Shown here: positions 2,542 through 32,048 of the stretch, piece by piece
How positions within the stretch are numbered: position 1 is the stretch's first letter
How the letters are laid out: each line of letters begins with the position of its first letter
From: Acidobacteriota bacterium
Lineage (GTDB): Bacteria > Acidobacteriota > UBA6911 > RPQK01 > JAJDTT01
Length of the DNA stretch: 64,000 nt
Assembly (NCBI GenBank): GCA_965209055.1
Contig: OZ242374.1
Coordinates: 1,056,001-1,120,000 of the forward strand
Direction of reading: 5' to 3'
Program-made: the position numbers and the translations under genes
The notes under the pieces: model-generated
What the model was told of the DNA's origin: nothing
What the model saw: only the letters and a program-made list of their open reading frames with translations
Databases searched by the model: none

Positions 2542-3150
2542 ATGCGTTTCAGGCAGTTGGACTACATGGCCAGAGTCGACTCGACCAGCGACTACCTGAA
2601 GCCGTTCATCGAATCGGGGAAGGCCCGAATGGCCGTCGCCGAAGAGCAGACCGGAGGACGCGGACGCTTTGGACGATCCTGGCATTCCCCCGCAGGCATG
2701 GGACTCTACGCGTCCTATCTCTGCTTTCCCGCCTCCGAGATTCGCCAGGCGGAGGACCTGACCCGGGCCGCGGCTCTGGGTGTGGTTCGAGCCATTGGCG
2801 CCTGGAGCGGAACGGGGGCGCCGCTGCGCATCAAGCTGCCCAACGACGTCCTGTTGAAAGGCAGGAAATGCGCCGGCATTCTCATCGAGATGGGGACCCA
2901 GACGGATCGAATCCAGTGGGCCATCATCGGCATCGGAGTCAACCTCTTTCATCGGTCGTTCCCCGACGAATTGGCCTCCACGGCCACCTCCCTGTCTCTG
3001 GAGGGAATACGCGTCCCGAATCTGATGACTTTCTTTCGGGAGCTGACGCGCCAACTGGAGCGGACCCTGTCGAGCCTGGAACAGGGTCACCGGCGTCAAC
3101 TCACGGTGGCTTTCCAGGAATACATCCTGGCCGGCGGGGGCAACGAATGA
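2542..3150 (+). CDS. birA: Biotin--[acetyl-CoA-carboxylase] ligase, catalytic domain only (no HTH)
   Basis: VDSTSD, AEEQTGGRGRFGRSWHSP, K(L)PNDV, KCAGILIE, GIGVN; ATG 2542 chosen just after the nadC stop. Confidence 0.9.
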   Translation: MRFRQLDYMARVDSTSDYLKPFIESGKARMAVAEEQTGGRGRFGRSWHSPAGMGLYASYLCFPASEIRQAEDLTRAAALGVVRAIGAWSGTGAPLRIKLPNDVLLKGRKCAGILIEMGTQTDRIQWAIIGIGVNLFHRSFPDELASTATSLSLEGIRVPNLMTFFRELTRQLERTLSSLEQGHRRQLTVAFQEYILAGGGNE

Positions 3151-4088
3151 TGAACCCCTCAACGCCGAAAGAACGGCCCGGTTATTTCGAACGCCTGAAA
3201 AGTGCGCTTCAGGCGACCCGCCGGGAACTGAGCCGCAGGATCGACGAATTGCTGGGACCCCGGGAGAGCCCCATCTCCCCGGATCAACTGGAGGAGCTGG
3301 AGTATCTTCTCATCGGGGCCGACCTGGGTGTCGAGACCAGCGAAAGCCTGGTGGCGAAGATCCGTCAAAGCAGCCGGGGAAAACGGCCCATCAGTTCCGG
3401 GCAGGCGCGCAAACTCCTGGCTTCCGAGCTCCTCGAACTGTTCGAGGTTCCCGGTTGGCAGGAAGAATGGGCCGCCAGACCGCATGTGGTCCTGGTGGTG
3501 GGAGTCAACGGTGTGGGCAAGACCACGACCATCGGCAAACTGGCCCACCGTTACGCCCGGGCCGGCAGGAGCGCCATCGTCGCGGCGTCGGACACGTTTC
3601 GCGCCGCCGCCGTGGAACAGTTGAGCGTCTGGTGCCGCCGCAGCGGGGCCGATCTTGTCATGCAGCGGGGCGGGACCGATCCCGCGGCGGTCTTGCATGA
3701 CGCCTTGCAGGCGGCGAAGGCCCGCAACAAGGACGTCCTCCTCGCCGACACGGCCGGCCGGCTGCACACCAAGCGGAATCTGATGGAAGAGGTCAAGAAA
3801 ATGGCCCGGGTCGCAGGCCGGCTGGTCCCCGGCGCGCCCCATGACGTCTACCTGGTTCTGGACGCGACGACGGGACAGAACGGTCTCATCCAGGCTCGGG
3901 AGTTCTTGACCGCCCTCGGCGTCACCGGAATCGTCGTCACCAAGCTGGACGGCACCGCAAAAGGGGGGATCGTCGCGGCGATCGCCAGTCAACTGAAGAT
4001 CCCCATCCGTTTCGTCGGCACGGGAGAAGGGCTGGAGGACCTGGCGCCCTTCGATCGTCAGACCTTCGTGGACTCCATCCTCACCTGA
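3147..4088 (+). CDS. ftsY: Signal recognition particle receptor FtsY
   Basis: GVNGVGKTTTIGKLA, DTFRAAAVEQL, DTAGRLH, LDATTGQNG, TKLDGTAKGG; ATGA overlap with birA. Confidence 0.97.
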   Translation: MMNPSTPKERPGYFERLKSALQATRRELSRRIDELLGPRESPISPDQLEELEYLLIGADLGVETSESLVAKIRQSSRGKRPISSGQARKLLASELLELFEVPGWQEEWAARPHVVLVVGVNGVGKTTTIGKLAHRYARAGRSAIVAASDTFRAAAVEQLSVWCRRSGADLVMQRGGTDPAAVLHDALQAAKARNKDVLLADTAGRLHTKRNLMEEVKKMARVAGRLVPGAPHDVYLVLDATTGQNGLIQAREFLTALGVTGIVVTKLDGTAKGGIVAAIASQLKIPIRFVGTGEGLEDLAPFDRQTFVDSILT

Positions 4089-5241
4089 ACACCGGCGCCA
4101 CGGCCGCCTGCATGGCCGCCGTGATGCCGGTCCCCAGTTTGACGGGAGCGCCCAGTTCCAGAAGACAGATCTCGATGGCCGAAATCACCGCGAAGACATC
4201 CACCAGATCGAAATAGCCCAAGTGTCCGATACGGATGATCTTCCCCTTCAGCACGCCCTGCCCGCCCGCCACGACGATCCCGAAGCGCTCCTGAAGATTC
4301 TGGATCAGCCTGGCCGCGTCGATCCCGGGAGGCGGAAAGCATGCCGTCAAGGCGTTGGCCGGCGCGGAGGAGAGTTGCCTGAAACCGAGGGCTTCCAATC
4401 CTCTCCGCGTGCAACGCGCCCGGACCTCGACCTGCTCCAGAATCCGGTCCAGGCCCTGATCGACCATTTCCCGGCTCGTCCGGTTCAAGGCCTGCACCAG
4501 GGCCACGGCGGGGGTCAGTCCCGTCTGTCCCCGGCGCTGCCCGTTCACTTCCTTGAGGAGATCGAAATAGAACCGGGGTCCGGGACAAGCCCGGATGGTT
4601 TCCAAAGCCCTGGGGCTCAGAGACAAAAAGGACAGGCCGGGCGGAATCGCAAACGCCTTCTGGGCGCCGCCGATGACCACGTCCAGACCCCAGGCGTCCG
4701 TCTCCACCGGCTGACTCCCCAGAGCCGTAATCGCGTCCACCACCACCAGAACCCCGGGACAACGGCTGCGGACCGTCCGAGCGATGGATTCCAGGTCGTG
4801 GATGGTGGCCGTGGAACTCTCGCAGCCCTGGATCAACAGGGCACGGATATCCGGGTTGGCCTCCAGAGCCCGTTGGATCTCCAAGGCCGAGGCTGCTTCA
4901 CCGTACGGTTTCTCCAGAACGTCGCACGGAACGTTGAAGGCCCGGCAGATTTGGACCCAGCGATCACCGAACTTTCCGGCCGAGACGGCCAGGGCACGGG
5001 ACTCGGAGGAGAGGAGGTTGTTCACCGCGGCTTCCATGGCTCCGGTTCCGGATGCGGTGAGGATGACGACGTCGTTCCTGGTCTTAAAAAGAGCCTGAAG
5101 GTGGGTTCGGGTCTCGAGCAGCAATTCCCGGAACTCGTCCTTGCGATGGTGGACCAGGGGACTGGCCATGGCCAATTGCGCAGACGGCGCGACCGGAGTC
5201 GGTCCTGGGGTGAATATCCGGGTTCGCCTCATGCGGCGCAT
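4081..5241 (-). CDS. PLP-dependent class V aminotransferase (serine/alanine-glyoxylate aminotransferase family)
   Basis: FTPGPTP, SGTGAMEAA, GKFGDRW, VDAIT, GAQKAFAIPPGL, RIGHLG. Confidence 0.93.
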   Translation of the reverse strand: MRRMRRTRIFTPGPTPVAPSAQLAMASPLVHHRKDEFRELLLETRTHLQALFKTRNDVVILTASGTGAMEAAVNNLLSSESRALAVSAGKFGDRWVQICRAFNVPCDVLEKPYGEAASALEIQRALEANPDIRALLIQGCESSTATIHDLESIARTVRSRCPGVLVVVDAITALGSQPVETDAWGLDVVIGGAQKAFAIPPGLSFLSLSPRALETIRACPGPRFYFDLLKEVNGQRRGQTGLTPAVALVQALNRTSREMVDQGLDRILEQVEVRARCTRRGLEALGFRQLSSAPANALTACFPPPGIDAARLIQNLQERFGIVVAGGQGVLKGKIIRIGHLGYFDLVDVFAVISAIEICLLELGAPVKLGTGITAAMQAAVAPVFR

Positions 5242-5306
5242 AATATCACGGCGCCAAACCCGGACTCCGGGAAAGAGAGTGGGTCAAATCAGTCGATTAC
5301 CCGCCT

Positions 5307-6269
5307 TCAGGCTGAAATGGCGACCGAGCCGGATCGCAACAGCGAGAGCCGGGGAGCGGCGTCGCATCCCGCCCGGATCCCCACCCAACCGGGCAGAATC
5401 CCGGCGAAGACGTTGCGAAAGTCCACCGTGTGAACCAGGTCTCCGGACGGCGTCAACTCATGGGGAGACAGGCCCGGGTGGCGCCCGTGAAGCCCCGCGA
5501 AGACCCTCTTTCCCACGATGAATACGGGATTGGCGGTTCCGTGGTCGGTGCCGAAAGTCTCATTCTCCGCCAGACGCCGTCCGAACTCGCTGAAGATCAC
5601 GACGACCACATGCTCGTCCCGGCCTCGGCGGGTCAGGTCGTCCAGGAAGCCGGTGACGGCCGCGGAGAGCATGGAGAGGAGCCGGGCATGGATCCCCCGG
5701 GTCGGATTCCCCGGGACAACCTGAAAGGCATGGGTGTCGAAGCCGCCCATGGACGTGTAGAACACCCGCACTCCCGTCCCGGCTGCGATGCACCGGGCGA
5801 TGACCGCCAGATTGGCCCCAAGAGCTCCGTCCGTCACCCGCATTCCAAGTTCCGGCAGGCATCGGCGGTCCGGACTGTCCCCTTCCGCCGCCGTTCCCAC
5901 CCGCGCCGTATGCCAGATCTTTCTGGACCGAAAATGGGATCGATTCGGATCGGGATAGCCCACTCCCTGAACCAGAGCCACATTTCCCCCGTCGAACAGC
6001 CTTTTGAACCCGTCCAGGGAGGGATGGAATCCGACGGTGTCGTCCAGCTTCAGGACGTCCGCGGGAGAAATGGCCAGATGCGGACGCTGCCGGTAGTAAT
6101 CCTCCAGGCCATGCGGGACCACCGTGTTGAGGCCATCGCAGCCTCCAGCCAATTCGATGAACACCGACACCGGCCGCGGGTCGATACTCCCCGCCGGCGA
6201 ACGCATGCCGGCGGCCAGAGAGACGCCGGAAACCAGGCACGACTTCCGGAGAAACTCTCGCCGTTTCAC
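5307..6269 (-). CDS. DUF1501-family protein with Tat-like signal (compact variant)
   Basis: MKRREFL, LAGGCDGLNTVVP, GVGYPDPNRSHF, GGFDTHA, SEFGRR, GTDHG, VDFR. Confidence 0.85.
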   Translation of the reverse strand: MKRREFLRKSCLVSGVSLAAGMRSPAGSIDPRPVSVFIELAGGCDGLNTVVPHGLEDYYRQRPHLAISPADVLKLDDTVGFHPSLDGFKRLFDGGNVALVQGVGYPDPNRSHFRSRKIWHTARVGTAAEGDSPDRRCLPELGMRVTDGALGANLAVIARCIAAGTGVRVFYTSMGGFDTHAFQVVPGNPTRGIHARLLSMLSAAVTGFLDDLTRRGRDEHVVVVIFSEFGRRLAENETFGTDHGTANPVFIVGKRVFAGLHGRHPGLSPHELTPSGDLVHTVDFRNVFAGILPGWVGIRAGCDAAPRLSLLRSGSVAISA

Positions 6270-6393
6270 CTGATCCTCCGGTGTTTTCCAGCCTTGGGAG
6301 TTCGCCGCATCCCGTGGAGACTTTCGACGCAGCTTCCTATACTACAGCACGAACAGTCGGCGATTCGGCCGAAGTGGCGACGGGGGTGGCATC

Positions 6394-7236
6394 TTGCGAC
6401 TGAGACACGCGATCTGCAGTGAGATCTTTGGGGGACAGGACCTGGCCCAAACCTGCCGGACGGTCCACGCACTCGGCTATCGGGGCCTGGAGGTGGCTCC
6501 GTTCACGCTGGCCGACTCGGTGGATGAGATCCCGCCCCGGCAGCGGCGGCAGATTCGGGAGACCATCGAAGGAGAGGGAATGGTCTGCTCGGGGATCCAC
6601 TGGCTCCTGGTCAAGCCCAAGGGGCTGCATCTGACGACTCGGGACCGGACCCTGAGGGACAAGAGTTGGTCCTATCTCTCGCGCCTCATCGACTTCTGCG
6701 GTGACCTGGGCGGACATCTCATGATCCTCGGCTCGCCCCATCAGCGGAGCACTCGGGACGGAATGACGGCCCGGGAAGCACTGGGCCGGCTCGCCGAGGG
6801 TCTGGCCGAGCTGGCCCCCTCGGCGCGCGATCGGGAGGTGACGCTCCTGATGGAGGCCGTTTCGAGCGAGGAGACGGATGTGGTCTCCACTCTGGCGGAG
6901 GCGGTCGAAGTGGTGGACCGGGTCGCCCACAGTCACGTCCAGACCATGTTCGATTGCCACAACGCCGCCGACGAGGGGGGCGACTTCCTCCACCTGGCCG
7001 AGCGTTACTGGTCCCGAATACGCCACGTTCACGTCAACGAGATCGACGGCCGCCATCCCGGCACCGGAGACGTGGACTTCGAACGCCTCCTGCGATTCCT
7101 ACGGGATCGGGACTATGGAGGCTGGGTCTCCTTGGAGGTCTTCGATTTCCGGGCCGGCGGCGAGCGGATCGCCCGGGAAAGCATCTCCTACCTCCGGGAG
7201 ATTGAATCGAGGCTGGAATCGGCCTCGGACCGTTGA
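6394..7236 (+). CDS. Sugar phosphate isomerase/epimerase (xylose isomerase-like TIM barrel, D-psicose 3-epimerase-like)
   Basis: GYRGLEVAPF, GSPHQR, metal ligands MEA / DCHN / HVHVNE / GWVSLEVF. Confidence 0.88.
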   Translation: MRLRHAICSEIFGGQDLAQTCRTVHALGYRGLEVAPFTLADSVDEIPPRQRRQIRETIEGEGMVCSGIHWLLVKPKGLHLTTRDRTLRDKSWSYLSRLIDFCGDLGGHLMILGSPHQRSTRDGMTAREALGRLAEGLAELAPSARDREVTLLMEAVSSEETDVVSTLAEAVEVVDRVAHSHVQTMFDCHNAADEGGDFLHLAERYWSRIRHVHVNEIDGRHPGTGDVDFERLLRFLRDRDYGGWVSLEVFDFRAGGERIARESISYLREIESRLESASDR

Positions 7237-7243
7237 CACCACC

Positions 7244-8566
7244 ATGTTGCCATGCCGAGCGGACGGCCTGGACCGTCGTGACTTCCTGATCGCCACGGCG
7301 GGCCTCGGATCGTCGGCCGGCTCCCTGTTTGCGACCGCACCGAGGCCGCAGGGGCCTCCCGGGCGGAGAAGGACCGGACCCATGAAAATCACCGGATTGA
7401 AGACCTACATGTTCAACGTGCCGACCGGAAGTCCTCCCCCCAGGAAGGGAGTCCGACGGAGCATCGCCAGCACCTTCAAGACCTGGCTGTTCCTGAAGAT
7501 CGAGACCGATACGGAACTCTCAGGCTGGGGCGAGGGGAGCATCGAATGGCTCTCGCCGGTGGTCAGGACGACGCTGGAGGGCTGGCGGGAACTCCTGGTG
7601 GGACAGGATCCGCTCAACGTGGTCGCCCTCTGCGACGACATCTCGGACCGCCTCCCCTGGAAGGGCGGACCGGTCCTGGGTACGGCCCTGGCGGCGGTGA
7701 ACATGGCCCTCTACGACATCGCCGGAAAAGCCTGGGGGGTCCCGGTCTACCAGATCCTGGGCGGCCGGAAGCGGGACCGCATCCGCGTCTACCATGGCGG
7801 CATCAGCTTCGAATCCGTCCAGGAAGCCGTGGCCAAGGCGCGGGCCGCCGTCGCCTCGGGCGTTCGAGGTCTCAAGGGGAACCCTCTGGAGATGCGGACG
7901 TGGCCCATGGACCGGGCTGCCTTGGACGAGTGCGTCCGAATCGTGGCGGCGGTCCGGGAGGAGGTGGGACCGGAGATCGACCTGATGCTGGACACCCACG
8001 GCAGTCCCAATCCGGCCCTGGCCATCGCATTCGCCGAAGCCGTGGCGCCCTACAAGCCGCTCTTCCTGGAGGAGCCTTGCAAGGTCGGGTCCATCGCGGC
8101 GCTCAAGGAGATCTCGGCGCGCAGTCCGGTTCCCATCGCCACCGGGGAAAAATTCTTCTCCTACCGGGAGTTCAAGGAAGTCATCGATGCCCGCGCCTGC
8201 GCGTTCCTCCAGCCCGACCTGAGCCATGCCTTCGGAATCACCCAGTTCCTGGCCGTCTCGCGCCTGGCCGAGGAGGCGCAGATCCTGATGGCGCCCCACA
8301 ACGCGTCGGGACCTGTCCATTTGGCAGCCCTGTTTCAGGCGGACGCCGTCATCTCCAATTTCCTGGTCCAGGAAGCCTGGGGATTGGAGCGGATGGACCG
8401 GTACGTGGAGCACGACCTCACCCTGACAGACGGCCACGTCCGGCTCAGCGACCGGCCCGGGCTGGGGATCCGGGTCAAGGAAGCGGACATCGCCAAGCTC
8501 CGCTATGACGCCGACATGTCCTACCGCCAGTACCGCCATGCCGACGGCAGTTGGAAGGGTTGGTAG
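7244..8566 (+). CDS. Mandelate racemase/muconate lactonizing enzyme family (galactonate dehydratase-like) with Tat-like leader
   Basis: DRRDFLI leader, GWGEG, MALYDIAGKAWGVPVYQILGG, MLDTHG, FLEEP, IATGEK, QPD, APHN. Confidence 0.88.
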   Translation: MLPCRADGLDRRDFLIATAGLGSSAGSLFATAPRPQGPPGRRRTGPMKITGLKTYMFNVPTGSPPPRKGVRRSIASTFKTWLFLKIETDTELSGWGEGSIEWLSPVVRTTLEGWRELLVGQDPLNVVALCDDISDRLPWKGGPVLGTALAAVNMALYDIAGKAWGVPVYQILGGRKRDRIRVYHGGISFESVQEAVAKARAAVASGVRGLKGNPLEMRTWPMDRAALDECVRIVAAVREEVGPEIDLMLDTHGSPNPALAIAFAEAVAPYKPLFLEEPCKVGSIAALKEISARSPVPIATGEKFFSYREFKEVIDARACAFLQPDLSHAFGITQFLAVSRLAEEAQILMAPHNASGPVHLAALFQADAVISNFLVQEAWGLERMDRYVEHDLTLTDGHVRLSDRPGLGIRVKEADIAKLRYDADMSYRQYRHADGSWKGW

Positions 8567-8614
8567 GAGGAGCCGCGGTTTTCCTACCGCCGACCAGGGG
8601 GGGTGGGGACGGCA
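8567..8614 (+). repeat. REP-like hairpin plus left half of a composite repeat; ends in the attL core GGGGACGGCA (8605-8614)
   Basis: GAGGAGCCGCGGTTTTCCTACCGCCG directly after the TAG stop, then G-tract and core; same architecture as copies at 31872-31960 and 38928-39083. Confidence 0.8.
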
Positions 8615-8762
8615 ACACACCCATTGAATCCAGAGATATCCCAAGAGATCCCGGAATATATTTTAAGTGGTTGTTTTTCTTTAGTTTAGACCTGTTCTCA
8701 CCCCGTTTCTTCCTCCCCTGACGTCCCTTGATATCCATCTCCATCCCGTTTATTATGGTGTA

Positions 8763-9998
8763 ATGGGTGATGTAATCAGTGCTCCCCTTTTGCCCCGGAA
8801 GACCAAGCCGAAGGGCCGCCACCCCCACAAGGCGCTCTCCGCCGCTTTCGTGCGCTCCGCCCCACCGGGCAAACACTGCGACGGCAACGGACTCTACCTC
8901 TTCGTCAAGCCTAACGGAGCACGAAGCTGGATCCAACGCCTCGTCATCCGCGGCCGCCGCCGCGACTTCGGACTCGGCGGTGTGGCACTGGTGTCCCTGG
9001 CCGAGGCCCGCGAGAAGGCGCGGGCCAACCGCAAGCTGGCCCGCGAAGGTGGGGATCCCCTGACCGAGAGACGCCGCACGCACAACATGCCCACCTTCGC
9101 CGAAGCCGCCGAGCGGGTGGTGGAGCAGAAGCGGTCCGGCTGGCGCAATCAAAGGCAGGCCCACGACTGGATGGCGAGCTTTCGACGCTACGCCTTTCCT
9201 CACATCGGCCGGATGCCGGTCTCGGAGGTGACCAGCGGCGACGTCCTGGAGATCCTCGTGCCCATCTGGCACGTGAAGTCGCGCACGGCCCGGACCGTGC
9301 GTCAGCGCCTCCGCACGGTCCTGGAGTGGGCCGTGGCGATGGAATACCGGACCGACAACCCCTGCGACCGGGTCGTGTCGGTGCTCGGAGCACAGGACGA
9401 CGTGGTGCGGCACATGCCGGCCTTGCCGCATCGCGAGGTGGGGGCGGCCCTCCGGAAGGTGCGGGCCTCCAACGCGATGCCCGTGTCCCTGCTGGCCTTC
9501 GAGTTCCTGGTGCTCACGGCGGCGAGGTGGGGCGAGGTGCGGTGGGCCGAGTGGCTGGAGATCGATCCGGCGCAAGGGATGTGGACGGTTCCCGCAATCC
9601 GCATGAAGACCAAACGGGCGCACCGGGTGCCTTTGTGCCGCCGGGCGAATGAGATCCTGGAGAAGGCACGCACGCTGGATCATGGAGCCACCCGGTTGAT
9701 CTTCGCCCGAAGGGGCGGAAAGCCGCTCGGCTCCGGCCGGTTGCGCAAGCTGCTGCGCCGGAACGGGATCGCCGCCGTGCCGCACGGGTTCCGGTCGAGT
9801 TTCCGGGACTGGGCGGCCGAGGAGACGGATCATCCACGCGAGGTGGTCGAGGCGGCGCTGGCACATGTGGTGAAGAACAAGGTCGAGGCGGCGTACCGGC
9901 GCACGGACCTGTTCGAGCGTCGGCGTCGGCTCATGGAGGACTGGGCGAACTATCTGGCTGGCGAGAGTCCGGAACGGGTGGCCGGCCGGCTCCGTTGA
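8763..9998 (+). CDS. P4/IntA-like tyrosine recombinase (arm-binding + core-binding + catalytic domains)
   Basis: DGNGLYLFVKPNGARSW, SLAEAREKA, LTAARWGE (R), RMKTKRAHRVPL (K), HGFRSSFRDW (HxxR), ALAH, AAYRR (Y). Confidence 0.96.
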   Translation: MGDVISAPLLPRKTKPKGRHPHKALSAAFVRSAPPGKHCDGNGLYLFVKPNGARSWIQRLVIRGRRRDFGLGGVALVSLAEAREKARANRKLAREGGDPLTERRRTHNMPTFAEAAERVVEQKRSGWRNQRQAHDWMASFRRYAFPHIGRMPVSEVTSGDVLEILVPIWHVKSRTARTVRQRLRTVLEWAVAMEYRTDNPCDRVVSVLGAQDDVVRHMPALPHREVGAALRKVRASNAMPVSLLAFEFLVLTAARWGEVRWAEWLEIDPAQGMWTVPAIRMKTKRAHRVPLCRRANEILEKARTLDHGATRLIFARRGGKPLGSGRLRKLLRRNGIAAVPHGFRSSFRDWAAEETDHPREVVEAALAHVVKNKVEAAYRRTDLFERRRRLMEDWANYLAGESPERVAGRLR

Positions 9999-10184
9999 TC
10001 CGCCGTGGTGGTTCTCCCGGCAGGCTTCGTGATCTGGGGTTCGAGCCGGATTCCGGGAGGTCGATCTTGACCGCTGAAAAGTGGGGTTCCGTGCCGCTCG
10101 GGGAGTGCACCTGAGACAATGGGCGGCATGTGCACCATGAGGGCTCTTCGATGTGCACGGCACCGTTCCTCTAACTTGCTGTCC

Positions 10185-10365
10185 CCATTCGGGTTACGGC
10201 TCGCCTCGCGGCTCGGCGGCACCGCTCGGGGAAAGCGGAGGTGGACGGGAGCGACCCCCCTTTTTTGCCTCCCGGATCGGCAAAGCGGGGCAGGCTGATG
10301 CGCACTGACCGTGCCATCGCCTCGGGGGGTCGCTCCCGTCCCAATGATCCCTGCCGGGAAGGCCT
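10185..10365. repeat. Long stem-loop unit 1 (18-bp perfect inverted repeat 10243-10260 / 10324-10341)
   Basis: GGACGGGAGCGACCCCCC ... GGGGGGTCGCTCCCGTCC; flanks homologous to unit 2. Confidence 0.85.
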
Positions 10366-10809
10366 CTGGATCGCCTGAGCGCGTGGCGGTGCACCACGGA
10401 ACGGCGCGGTGGGCAGGCCGCCGCGTGCCAGTGCTCGTACCAGCGTCTGTGGACGGCCCCGATGGCTGGACGGAGTGATCTGGCGGATCGAACAGGCAAT
10501 CTTCTTCCAGAAATGCGGAGTGTGCTGAAAGGGACGCGGGCCGATTCGACGGCTATGGCAGCGTCAGGGCCTCGCTGAGACCGGCCATCGAGTGGCGACC
10601 AGGGGCGGAAGATCGCGCCGCCGGCGTGGAGATCGACGACGACGTTCGCGACGCTCTCGTGGCGGGCGACACGCTTGCCGGGGAGCTCATTTTGACGGGT
10701 ACAGAGCGCCCCACCGTGTCGATCCGGGAGTGTAAGGGAGACAACGGGGGCAACTTACATCATGGGAGTCTGCCAACTTACACACGCGATTTCCCCGATC
10801 TCTTTGTCG

Positions 10810-10990
10810 CTCATGCTGTTACGGCCATGTTTTCGGCTCCGCCGTGCCCGCACGGGGAAAGCGGAGGTGGAAGGGAGCGACCCCCCCTTTTTCCTGCCCG
10901 GTGCGGGCGCGGGGGTGTGGCGCAACTTACATCTGCGCCACACCCCCTGGGGGGGTCGCTCCCTTCCAAAATATCCCTGCGGGAAGCCCC
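10810..10990. repeat. Long stem-loop unit 2 (20-bp inverted repeat 10868-10887 / 10949-10968, nested 14-bp hairpin 10911-10947)
   Basis: TGGAAGGGAGCGACCCCCCC ... GGGGGGGTCGCTCCCTTCCA; nested GGGGGTGTGGCGCA/TGCGCCACACCCCC. Confidence 0.85.
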
Positions 10991-11763
10991 CGGAGAAGAA
11001 TCCGGAAGACCTGTTAGGGCTCTGCCAAGCCTCCATCCTCGACACGCGGTGCAGGATCCAGGCATGACCACAGGCGACACGTGCCACTGGGGTCCGCAGG
11101 TGCAGGTGGATCTTCGGCGTCCTCTTGGACGAGGAGTTGGACCGAACCCCGGAAGGTCTGAACTCGGAACGGCAGGCGGAGGTTCGCGTCGGGGTCCGCT
11201 CCAGGCCCAGCCCCCGATCCAGGGCCTGGCCGACGAGGCGGCCGGTGCGGGTGGTGGTGGTCCGGCCGTCGAGAGCCAGCTCCACGCCGTGGTGGCACCG
11301 GAGCAAGCGGCGGTCGAAGCGCAGGGCGCGGTTTCTCCGGCAACCCGGAACGGATGACGGACCGGGGGAACCGATCCCCCCAGACCCCTCAGTGGCGCCA
11401 GAACCCCTGGCGGCTCACCTTGCCGCCAGTGAACCTGGCGCTTCTGTTCGTCGCGCGTCCCATGAGAATGGGACCCTCACGCGGTCTCCTCGGCCTTCCA
11501 GCCGGGAGTGAGACGTTCGCCCGTTTCCGGCAGTCCTGGCCAATCGGACCCGGTCAGCTCCGAATGTCCGCCCCCAATTCCCGGAGCGCGCAGGCGCTTG
11601 AAACCTGGGAGTCGAGGCGAGAAACTCGTCCATGGAGTCCACGGACCTCCAATAGGGTCGAATGGAATCCCGTTCAGAAGGTGGGATGTAATGATGTAAC
11701 CTGCTCGGGAGAATAGATCATAACTCTATTATTATCAGATACTTAAGAGATCTTTTCCGTAGA

Positions 11764-11849
11764 GGGGACGGCAGTCCCCCCTTTACGCTTTCCAACCGCC
11801 GAATTGCCCAACAACACGCAAAGATGGGCGATTAGGAAATCGCCCCTCC
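11764..11849 (+). repeat. attR core plus right half of the composite repeat, ending in an inverted REP (GGGCGATTAGGAAATCGCCC-CTCC)
   Basis: About 59/69 identity (hand alignment) to the reverse complement of 38928-38996. Confidence 0.85.
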
Positions 11850-11888
11850 ATCCCATGGAATTATTCGCCGCGTCGTTATCAGATAGAC

Positions 11889-12992
11889 ATGAACCAGGAA
11901 TCCCGTCTCTGGCTCGCCCTGTCCCGCGTCCCCGGGATGCCCGCCCGCATCACCCGGTCCCTGATCAAGGGGGAGCGGCCGTTGTCATCTTTCTTCGGCT
12001 TGTCCAGAAAATCCCTCCAGAGCCTCCGGCTGCCTGAGAAATCCATCGGCGCCATCGTCGGCGGGTCCGCGCTCCGGACGGCCGACCGGGAAATCCGCCG
12101 GCTTCCGCGGCTGGGGCTGCAGTTGGTGACCCTGGACAGCCCCCGCTACCCTCGACTCCTCCGCCAGATTCACGATCCGCCTCCCGTCCTTTACTGTGCC
12201 GGGCGGATCGAGACCCTGTCCGGACCCTCGGTGGCTTTGGTGGGATCCCGCCGGCCCACCGTCTACGGAAAGGAGGTCAGCCGCAAGCTGGCCCGGGAAC
12301 TCTCCGCGCTGGGACTCTGCGTGGTGAGCGGACTGGCCCGCGGCGTCGATTCCCAGGCCCATTGGGGAGCCCTGCAGGCGGAAGGCGGGACCGTCGGGGT
12401 CCTGGGTTGCGGCATCGACGTGGTCTACCCCCCGGAAAACGGGGAGTTGTTTCGCCGGGTGCGGAAACAGGGTTGCCTGGTCAGCGAGTTTCCCCGCGGC
12501 AGCCCCCCGGCGCGCCACCGCTTTCCGGCCCGCAACCGGATCATCAGTGGACTGGCTCACGGGACCATCGTCACCCAGGCGGCCAAGGGGTCCGGTTCAA
12601 TCATCACCGCGAACCTCGCCCTGGAACAGGGACGGGACGTCTGGGCGGTGCCGGGAGCCATCACCCTGTCCCTGAGCTGGGGTCCCAACTGGTTGATCCA
12701 ACAGGGGGCCAAGGCGGTCCTTTCGGTCCAGGACGTGTTGGAGGAGCTTCCCCCCTCCGTACTGGGACGGCTCGAGGAAAAGAACGCCCAAGCCTCGCCG
12801 GCGCCCCGGCCCACCGCTCGGGAAGAGGCGGTGCTCGACTTGCTGGCCGTCGATTCGACGCTCCATATCGACGCCATCCTGACCCAATCGGGTCTGGACC
12901 TTTCCGGGCTCAGCGACATCCTTCTGAGTCTGGAAATCAAGGGCCTGATCCGCCAGAGTCCGGGCCGCCAGTACAGCCGGCGCCTGTCTTGA
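11889..12992 (+). CDS. dprA: DNA-processing protein DprA
   Basis: YPRLLRQIHDPPPVLY, VGSRRPT.YG, VSGLARGVD, FPARNRIISGL, SGSIITA, C-terminal winged helix. Confidence 0.96.
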   Translation: MNQESRLWLALSRVPGMPARITRSLIKGERPLSSFFGLSRKSLQSLRLPEKSIGAIVGGSALRTADREIRRLPRLGLQLVTLDSPRYPRLLRQIHDPPPVLYCAGRIETLSGPSVALVGSRRPTVYGKEVSRKLARELSALGLCVVSGLARGVDSQAHWGALQAEGGTVGVLGCGIDVVYPPENGELFRRVRKQGCLVSEFPRGSPPARHRFPARNRIISGLAHGTIVTQAAKGSGSIITANLALEQGRDVWAVPGAITLSLSWGPNWLIQQGAKAVLSVQDVLEELPPSVLGRLEEKNAQASPAPRPTAREEAVLDLLAVDSTLHIDAILTQSGLDLSGLSDILLSLEIKGLIRQSPGRQYSRRLS

Positions 12993-31871: not shown

Positions 31872-31960
31872 GGAACGGCGACATGGAGCGGCGACATGGA
31901 GCGGCGACATCCCTGTCGCCGAGGGGGGGTTAGGGGGGACGCAGTCCCCCCTGTACACTT
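31872..31960 (+). repeat. Composite REP-like repeat with a stuttered 13-bp unit (GGAGCGGCGACAT, about x3) and GGGGGGAC-GCA-GTCCCCCC hairpin
   Basis: Same architecture as 38928-39083; core reads GGGGACGCA (1-nt deletion versus GGGGACGGCA). Confidence 0.8.
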
Positions 31961-32048
31961 CCTCTCCCCCCTCCCAAACCGCCGTCCCGCCAATTTTTGT
32001 TAAATTGTCCGCTCCCGGGATAAGCGGCGGGGGCACGACACCGAGTCA

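Follow-up and report, generated by a model that had tools for sequence, protein, structure and literature searches.

A small element with a P4-like tyrosine integrase at a multicopy REP-type hairpin in an Acidobacteriota genome

The element and its integrase

The window analysed here, a stretch of 64,000 nucleotides from a sponge-associated Acidobacteriota bacterium (GenBank assembly GCA_965209055.1), corresponds to positions 1,056,001-1,120,000 of a single 6.08-Mb contig (OZ242374.1). It revealed an element of 3.17 kb (8605-11773) that carries a tyrosine integrase gene and is flanked, as the initial annotation had stated, by the 10-bp direct repeat GGGGACGGCA at 8605-8614 and 11764-11773. This 10-mer has four exact matches in the window compared with 0.52 expected, a number attained in only 1 of 100 shuffles. 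The ends of the element are AT-rich, with a GC content of 0.48-0.55 vs. about 0.67 in the surroundings. On both sides, the direct repeat adjoins one half of a composite repeat containing a hairpin of the repetitive extragenic palindrome (REP) type. The left half (8566-8604, plus strand) consists of the REP-type hairpin GCGGT-TTTCCT-ACCGC followed by seven consecutive G and a T. It begins directly 3' of the stop codon of a mandelate racemase/enolase-family gene (Pfam MR_MLE_C/N in the upstream open reading frame (ORF)) and is covered by a match of the composite profile (nhmmer) at genome positions 1064567-1064624. The right half (11774-11806, plus strand) starts with the right hairpin arm GTCCCCCC, followed by TTTACGCTTTCC..., and lies upstream of dprA (11889-12992).

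Next to the left core copy (attL, 8605-8614, plus strand), an AT-rich left arm (8615-8762, plus strand) was found that is conserved among the copies of the element and harbors AAGAGATC- and GATATCC-type motifs as candidate arm-type sites. A promoter scan detected a sigma-70-like promoter, TTGATA-17-TATTAT, at 8728-8756 (10 of 12 matches), ending 7 nt before the ATG of the integrase gene (8763-9998, plus strand, 411 aa). The latter is the only recognisable gene of the element, and the remaining c. 1.8 kb revealed no convincing gene. Its interior (9999-11518) is apparently non-coding: eight ORFs of 75-243 aa showed no family, tblastx against all other loci gave matches in all frames without frame-specific conservation, and an Rfam search of 8000-12500 resulted in one chance-level match only (mir-563, E 0.85). 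The right arm (11519-11763, plus strand) with its AT-rich end ...ATCAGATACTTAAGAGATCTTTTCCGTAGA precedes the right core copy (attR, 11764-11773, plus strand). It is common to all copies of the element and to a sister element with a different core, and conservation of a block at about 11618-11730 extends even to elements of Gemmatimonadota. Comparison of the end sequences, ACACACCCATTG... and ...TTTTCCGTAGA, showed that terminal inverted repeats are absent. As is typical of an integrative element, the integrase lies towards one end, a direct repeat forms the boundary on either side, and the element is absent from the orthologous sites of relatives, as described below.

The deduced integrase harbors an Arm-DNA-bind_3 domain (PF13356, E 6.9e-18, residues 25-105), followed by the central SAM-like core-binding and the C-terminal catalytic domain (Phage_int_M, PF22022, E 4.6e-25; Phage_integrase, PF00589, E 1.6e-12). 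In the PDB, domain matches were obtained to the CP4-like integrase 3jtz (arm domain, E 6.4e-8) and to 2khv, and the solved fragments matched comprise arm and core-binding domains of CP4-like and phage integrases. Identity to phage integrases was 41% at most, and the score against NCBIfam PRK09692 (139.4 bits vs. a cut-off of 434) lies below the curated score and marks the protein as a domain-level relative only. Catalytic-type motifs were located at AAR255, MKTKRAH 281-287, H341GFR344 (HxxR), H368, and Y378, and motif resemblance suggests a catalytic role for each of these residues. None of the integrase genes of the five copies described below has an internal stop, and dN/dS values among these and the sister copy ranged from 0.27 to 0.52; the integrase is intact and under constraint.

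The target composite, its occupied copies, and its empty sites

In its unsplit form, the composite is composed of a REP-type hairpin (GGCGAC/GGCGGT...GTCGCC/ACCGCC), a G-run, (G/T)TAG, a GGGGGGAC-GGCA-GTCCCCCC hairpin, and TxTAC(G/A)CTT, in this order. The core GGGGACGGCA occupies the left arm and the loop of the second hairpin, a position proposed initially and confirmed in both sequence and folding. Folded as single-stranded DNA, the composite forms two hairpins (dG -24.9 kcal/mol, z -3.89), and none of 200 shuffles folded as well. It displays the traits of REPs and bacterial interspersed mosaic elements, i.e., short GC-rich imperfect palindromes in high copy number at extragenic positions, and its copies were found after stop codons and between genes. 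A profile search (nhmmer, E<=1e-3) resulted in 73 genome matches, including five left and five right halves at element ends; roughly 55-60 composites are unsplit, with varying loops. A loose pattern for the REP unit gave about 380 genome matches. For the Y1 transposase family (PF01797), to which the RAYT genes associated with REPs belong, two weak matches of 30.8 and 23.6 bits (cut-off 23) were obtained in the genome.

Two unoccupied composites lie within the window. The first (38957-39035, minus strand; genome 1095035-1094957) contains the exact core, folds as two DNA hairpins, and represents a potential attB, while the second (31891-31965, plus strand; genome 1087891-1087965) is a variant with a 3-nt loop (GACGCAGTC) that lacks the exact core. 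Both had been named as counterparts of the site restored by removing the element in silico, and the restored sequence indeed agrees with them in 68 of 83 columns and 50 of 67 positions, respectively. As its flanks stem from two ancestral composites (see below), this restored site does not represent the original attB but a hybrid.

The genome encodes 16 full-length paralogues of the integrase, one of them with two stops, which fall into four groups. Group A comprises five copies with 91-100% identity to the integrase of the window, all targeting the REP hairpin. The corresponding elements range from 2.5 to 16.4 kb and have identical junctions and the same orientation relative to the composite. 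The left junction (marked by ^) reads REP..G-run..(T)AGGGGGGACGGCA^ACAC(A/T)(C/T)CCATTGAATCC in all five, the right one CCGT(A/G)G(A/T)^GGGGACGGCA GTCCCCCC TxTACGCTT. Copy 1, that of the window (3.17 kb), copy 2 (2,970,865-2,974,033, about 3.17 kb, 98.8% identity to copy 1), and copy 5 (185,959-183,455, 2.5 kb) are free of cargo. Copy 3 (470,134-463,389, 6.7 kb) carries a frameshifted trypsin-like gene and a 405-aa ORF without family. Copy 4 (818,193-801,798, 16.4 kb) harbors a defence-like gene cluster (positions 2584-12815, minus strand, of the extracted locus L133, genome 800798-819193) encoding a C-5 cytosine methylase (Dcm), a HATPase_c_3 ATPase, Z1, DUF4420 (PD-(D/E)XK), and an AIPR protein split into two ORFs. 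The flanking genes are distinct for copies 1, 2, 3, and 4/5. DNA identity among copies 1-3 was 98.3-98.8%, and their spread appears to be recent. Since copies 4 and 5 have homologous flanks on both sides, they may represent one insertion plus a duplication, and we count at least four independent loci. To the right of copy 2 (4270-5169 of locus L131), we detected another multicopy element with at least nine near-full matches in genome G004 (85-89% identity), which is probably an insertion sequence (IS).

All five copies thus have the same attL and attR within the composite, as do three loci of other genomes (L051-L053), whose left junction is the same and whose flanks differ; L052 additionally revealed the matching right junction about 2.5 kb away, delimiting a 2.5-kb element. 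We regard it as very likely that this is an integrative element with a P4-like integrase that has been retargeted to the multicopy REP hairpin and is multiplying within the genome. The initial annotation had put forward such a retargeting with transposon-like spread as one of two explanations.

The genomic context of the core also bears on this reading. Altogether, GGGGACGGCA occurs 85 times in the genome, 10 times at element ends, 10 times in unsplit composites, and 65 times elsewhere, mostly in coding sequence. While 5 of 15 composite contexts are occupied, none of the 65 others is (Fisher p 1.2e-4, or 6.7e-4 when copies 4 and 5 are taken as a single event), so that the integrase requires more than the 10-mer. 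Composites with the exact core are the only occupied ones. At attL of copy 4 (genome 818,150-818,193), the G-run consists of 26 G compared with 6-8 elsewhere, displaying a hypervariable homopolymer beside the core.

Empty sites were found in relatives, as had been predicted. The integrase family is present in all eight other genomes of the genus searched. In G008, the closest relative based on DprA and MR_MLE (96-97% identical), unsplit composites follow the MR_MLE gene and precede dprA (L032), and the one upstream of dprA runs on into the same sequence as the right flank in the window. At the locus of copy 3, between a DUF1501 gene and an outer-membrane barrel gene, G004 harbors an unsplit composite, G008 an element, and G001 and G002 other REPs. 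Orthologous left flanks of copy 2 in G001, G002, G004, and G006 hold other REP arrays. These sites bear on the idea that REP and hairpin halves are travelling termini of the element itself, composites being its footprints or solo ends instead of pre-existing targets. The element is always found together with the repeat halves, and similarity between the attP side and attB extends past the core (CGTAGAGGGGACGGCA vs. GGTAGGGGGGACGGCA), both of which would fit. However, unsplit composites occupy orthologous intergenic positions in relatives without the element there, the pattern for the REP unit alone matches in the numbers given above, composites with other loops are common, and the sister element has the same arms with a different core at a non-composite site. 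We therefore consider travelling termini very unlikely.

Parts of the stretch were also contained in 19 listed sample runs from eight studies, including sponge and coral-reef metagenomes. Four runs were compared with the stretch, and the one raw-read run, X20, contributed no reads. One contig of another sponge metagenome (X4; 8,190 nt, 17 differences) extends from the MR_MLE gene to 110 nt inside the element and thus shows that the same left junction exists in another sample.

Comparison of the flanks revealed a rearrangement at the window copy. In all eight relatives, MR_MLE is followed by a composite (c1) and a gene Y, and a gene X is followed by a second composite (c2) and dprA. In the genome of the window, MR_MLE, attL, the element, attR, and dprA are contiguous instead, and gene X, a composite, and gene Y are located, inverted, at 1,730,860-1,730,969, i.e., 663 kb distant. 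On this evidence, the flanks of the window copy have been reciprocally exchanged between the two ancestral composites, with a crossover between ...CTCTTGGGGGGG and CTTTCCCC..., a segment of about 45 bp that includes the hairpin. A single inversion relative to a G001-like order was considered and rejected, since the two loci are directly oriented in the complete relatives G001-G005, where they lie 500-590 kb apart; at least two rearrangements separate the arrangements. The exchange may have been catalysed by the integrase (attR x attB) or may have resulted from homologous recombination between composites before or after the insertion.

Recombination of this kind leads to the question of whether the integrase was needed for more than a first insertion, with the repeat halves flanking the element and empty composites serving as partners in homologous recombination or gene conversion during the later spread. 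Gene conversion via the flanking halves of about 30-50 bp would yield the same junctions, which counts against an integrase-driven spread. The copies are flanked by about 45 bp (REP and G-run) and about 30 bp (right arm and TxTACGCTT) common to the 55-60 or so empty copies, a reciprocal exchange between two composites did occur in this genome, and the flanks of copies 4 and 5 point to duplication and not to a new insertion. However, these homology arms are short and imperfect, occupancy is confined to 5 of 15 exact-core composites vs. none of about 45 variant-loop composites, and an integrase dispensable for the spread contrasts with five intact genes of five and dN/dS below 1. In addition, other integrase clades in other phyla have their own recurrent targets, which fits enzyme-directed targeting. 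On balance, spread without the integrase seems unlikely to us, and integrase-driven multiplication at the hairpin is preferred.

As stated in the initial annotation, no tRNA gene adjoins the element: ARAGORN detected none in the 64-kb window, and the nearest one is 144.5 kb away from the window copy. Among the 69 tRNA and transfer-messenger RNA (tmRNA) genes of the genome, none serves as attB for the family, all 16 members of which lie more than 1.2 kb from any tRNA call. The nearest member is 1.28 kb from an 85-nt 'tRNA-Val' call inside the M repeat described below. This tRNA-Val(TAC) call (3841235-3841319) falls within an M repeat copy at 3841060-3841333 and is probably false and caused by the hairpin. 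Five classical paralogues with about 30% identity to the family provided a built-in control (genome 1243508, 1580727, 1990076, 2526224, and 476245), since they lie 160-195 bp from tRNA-Ala, tRNA-Phe, tmRNA, tRNA-Ile, and tRNA-Leu genes. At the tRNA-Ala locus, an unsplit composite was found about 140 nt upstream of the tRNA.

With these data, the second explanation offered initially, secondary-site integration at an accidental mimic of a primary site at the 3' end of tRNA-Glu or another tRNA gene, becomes extremely improbable. The core does have GGGGACG in common with the 3' end of tRNA-Glu(UUC), and L011, a basal row of the tree described below, is located about 140 nt after a tmRNA gene. However, the tRNA-Glu(UUC) of this genome shares just these 7 of 10 bases, neither of the two tRNA-Glu genes has an integrase within 35 kb, and no 10-mer outside the composite carries an element. 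The hairpin site recurs in all five copies and in three loci of other genomes, and 0 of 16 family members are found at a tRNA gene vs. 5 of 5 unrelated classical paralogues.

Relatives of the integrase and their targets

Apart from group A, the paralogues in the genome comprise a single sister copy and two groups of five copies each, B1 and B2. The sister integrase (81% identity) belongs to an element with the same arm ends (...TTCCGTAGA, core, A(C/T)ACA(C/T)CCA...), but its core, CCCTGCGG, is unrelated, and so is the site where it is inserted, the tip of a different palindrome. This target is a single-copy site and is occupied at the same locus in G001 (L057). Integrases of B1 and B2 show about 64% identity to that of the window. 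B1 elements adjoin a palindromic repeat of about 190 nt, which was found in their left flanks at genome positions 68120, 580087, 2485194, 3838719, and 4968589; the unit begins with CAGTCCGTGGTGAAAGTC... and is unsplit in G006 (L039, upstream of dprA). B2 elements adjoin GCCTTCCCGCAAGG, the terminus motif of the M repeat.

To survey the family, one genome per species was used, and the best 80 of 143 relatives were included. Hosts belong to Acidobacteriota (including Ca. Versatilivorator and Vicinamibacterales), Gemmatimonadota (Longimicrobiales and Ca. Palauibacter), and a few bins labelled Gammaproteobacteria, many of them being sponge- or coral-associated metagenome-assembled genomes. Two genomes harbored at least 11 family loci each. 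A quick maximum-likelihood tree was calculated from 105 rows after sequences below 370 aa (L056, L010, and G0_3143647) had been dropped. In this tree, the family forms a clade of 96 rows (node value 95*), and the REP-hairpin rows fall into one clade of 13 rows (99*), the sister of which is found at the single-copy site. Apart from L011, outgroup rows had no tRNA within 1.5 kb.

Target labels required 18 changes on the tree compared with a mean of 62.9 after shuffling, and none of 200 shuffles was as low, although near-copies inflate this clustering. Integrase subclades each use their own short recurrent target. Recurrent left junctions of clades were ...GTCACCGTCACTGT^AGC, ...GTAGCTCCGGCGGCT^, ...TGCTGCCGCCGCCGCAAC^, and ...CAGCTTCCTGTGCAG^. 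The first of these is found in 18 tree rows of a Gemmatimonadota clade (L061-L084, junction at about 5849). Here, the flanking ORF ends in ...AVTVTVA* at the junction, where the stop is supplied, in four of five inspected loci, so that these elements border on, or cut short, genes that contain an Ig-like repeat motif. Inspection of L068/L069 showed an element of 2,286 bp with a 15-bp direct repeat. For L081, an element of 3,355 bp with an 11-bp repeat was indicated by a k-mer search and a matching tblastx block. Automatic searches for direct repeats around elements of the other clades resulted mostly in noise.

A further repeat is associated with the B1 and B2 groups. The M repeat is about 290 bp long, contains a long hairpin (GGA(C/A)GGGAGCGACCCCCC...GGGGGGGTCGCTCCC(G/T)TCC) and the terminus ATCCCTnnCGGGAAGGCC, is present in 50-63 genome copies, and forms the right terminus of both B1 and B2 integrase elements. 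The window element contains two copies that are just 75% alike over 149 nt. The first (10040-10364, plus strand) is partial, with hairpin arms at 10243-10260 and 10324-10341 and the terminus ATCCCTGCCGGGAAGGCC at 10347-10364. The second (10716-10998, plus strand) is full, with hairpin arms at 10869-10887 and 10949-10967 and the terminus ATATCCCTGCGGGAAGCC at 10971-10988. At window positions 10090-10720, contigs from other samples skip 629 nt (X1) or go back 628 nt (X4) between the two modules, which suggests variants with one or three modules. A short block resembling the M hairpin arm also follows the integrase stop codon in several Versatilivorator-type loci. A loose regular expression for M termini gave 742 matches and was used only for clusters at about 948 and 1115 bp. 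The M repeat may be a target, a terminus, or a separate miniature inverted-repeat transposable element.

We also noticed a conserved ORF of about 105-135 aa without Pfam family (ORF-X) that adjoins the B1 and B2 integrases and four t(m)RNA-adjacent integrases. It is located at genome positions 70032-70436 (minus strand) and about 10 other places, at about 7780-8100 in L089, L090, L102, and others, and, in Versatilivorator loci, some 600 bp beyond the integrase; the window element lacks it. ORF-X is a candidate for a directionality factor or regulator.

Proposed mechanism and relation to known systems

Reduced to its minimum, the element consists of two AT-rich arms, a self-promoted P4/CP4-57-like integrase gene, and c. 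1.8 kb of non-coding DNA. Its attP would be composed of the right-arm end ...CCGTAGA, the core GGGGACGGCA, and the left-arm start ACACACCC..., and a GTAG-tagged REP-type hairpin (GTAG-GGGGGGAC-GGCA-GTCCCCCC-TxTAC) within the composite of about 60 copies would provide attB at its top. Insertion is most likely a conservative site-specific recombination between attP of a circular form and the hairpin top. The crossover would fall in the left arm and the loop of the hairpin, splitting the latter and leaving 10 bp in duplicate. The G-rich hairpin arms could plausibly act as a pair of core-type half-sites in inverted orientation, and the AT-rich arms as the region where the integrase's N-terminal domain would find its arm sites. 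Excision as a circle, the identity of the core- and arm-type binding sites, the requirement for a directionality factor, and the route from cell to cell are inferred. As many near-identical attB sites exist, the element has colonised several of them and behaves like a site-specific transposon, and it can ferry cargo of the kind seen in copy 4, up to 16.4 kb in size with a defence-gene cluster.

Several observations weigh against this account. The eight interior ORFs of the window element revealed no Pfam family at E<=1, and neither an excisionase nor a transfer gene was among them. An identity of 10 bp leaves little room for two core sites and an overlap, which makes the assignment of half-sites guesswork. 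Because of its hybrid flanks, the insertion of the window copy itself is not simply reconstructable. Among 15 of the 17 joints in Logan contigs, none represented a circle junction (a go-back of about 3.16 kb). Joints skipping the element were found at 8592->11765 (X15, X1, and X4) and 8601->11764 (X1), but just 22-25 nt lie on one side and could derive from any unsplit composite, so they were not counted as evidence of an empty site. Finally, the flanks of close homologues were compared. The outcomes that the initial annotation had named as refuting were not observed, no family member lying at a tRNA gene, and L051-L053 have the same left junction, but L054 and L056 are joined at a hairpin in the opposite orientation (GTCCCC(T/C)C^AACACCC), and L055 and L087 adjoin a different motif, CCTTCCCG. 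Altogether, 4 of 13 clade loci deviate (L056 not being a tree row), and two further rows are the CCCTGCGG sister pair. The right ends of L053-L057 were not found within the 6-kb flanks.

Taken further, the data could point to a cross-phylum family of minimal, integrase-only elements resembling a 'tyrosine IS', whose target is largely set by an attP core of 8-15 bp and whose lineages can be retargeted to an abundant host sequence, such as REP hairpins, other palindromic repeats, repeat ends, or a recurrent coding motif. Such elements would reach more than 10 copies per genome, transport defence genes as cargo, and rearrange chromosomes through att x att recombination. We put this forward tentatively, as a possibility that is rather less probable than not; its main hint is the sister element, with an integrase 81% identical, which keeps the arm ends but has an unrelated core and site. 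Were the target set by the core alone, such enzymes might serve as retargetable tools. The evolution of att specificity can be studied in the natural series that these integrases form, since they are close relatives and differ in their short targets.

Textbook accounts present phage-type tyrosine integrases as enzymes that use a single site, in most cases a tRNA gene. An arm-binding integrase lineage that has shifted to multicopy repeats and proliferates inside genomes blurs the line between site-specific integration and transposition. By delivering cargo and causing large rearrangements, it would also drive genome plasticity in a way undescribed until now in Acidobacteriota and Gemmatimonadota associated with sponges and corals.

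Targeting of REPs has been described for members of the IS3 (IS1397/ISKpn1/ISPsy8), IS110 (IS621/ISPa11/ISPpu9/ISPpu10), IS4, IS256, and IS5 families, and a tyrosine recombinase is not among the five families named in that account (Tobes and Pareja 2006, PMC1525189). As related topics, GTAG-tagged REPs were treated by Di Nocera et al. 2013 (PMC3733652) and hitcher elements by a 2024 review (PMC11389934). Our literature search yielded no account of REP targeting by a tyrosine integrase. Like the REP-targeting IS, the element of the window inserts specifically into repetitive extragenic palindromes, is present several times per genome, and uses intergenic safe sites. While the IS use DDE/DEDD transposases, it carries an arm-binding tyrosine integrase and att-type arms and lacks terminal inverted repeats.

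Repeated chromosomal sequences also serve prophages, since the prophage-like element phiRv1 inserts into REP13E12 repeats of Mycobacterium tuberculosis by means of a large serine integrase, and filamentous prophages of Neisseria are found in dRS3 repeats and use an IS110-like enzyme. Like the window element, they combine an integrase-type enzyme with a repeated element as multiple attB, but their target copies are few and they are prophage-sized. Tyrosine recombinases acting on palindromic or hairpin-forming sites are known from integrons, whose integrases act at attC hairpins, and from XerCD-dependent elements, which use dif. In contrast to these, the integrase of the window carries a domain for arm binding, as is typical of phage-type attP complexes, and the analysis of the window element gave no evidence for single-stranded folded substrates or use of host Xer.

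A close likeness is to elements with P4/CP4-57 (IntA-like) integrases, with which it shares the three-domain architecture of Arm-DNA-bind_3, Phage_int_M, and catalytic domain, the integrase at one end, and a short direct repeat as boundary. While classical members adjoin tRNA or tmRNA genes in the very same genome, the window element targets a multicopy REP-type hairpin, and it differs further in an identity block of just 10 bp, in that such an element can consist of the integrase only (2.5-3.2 kb), and in several copies per genome.

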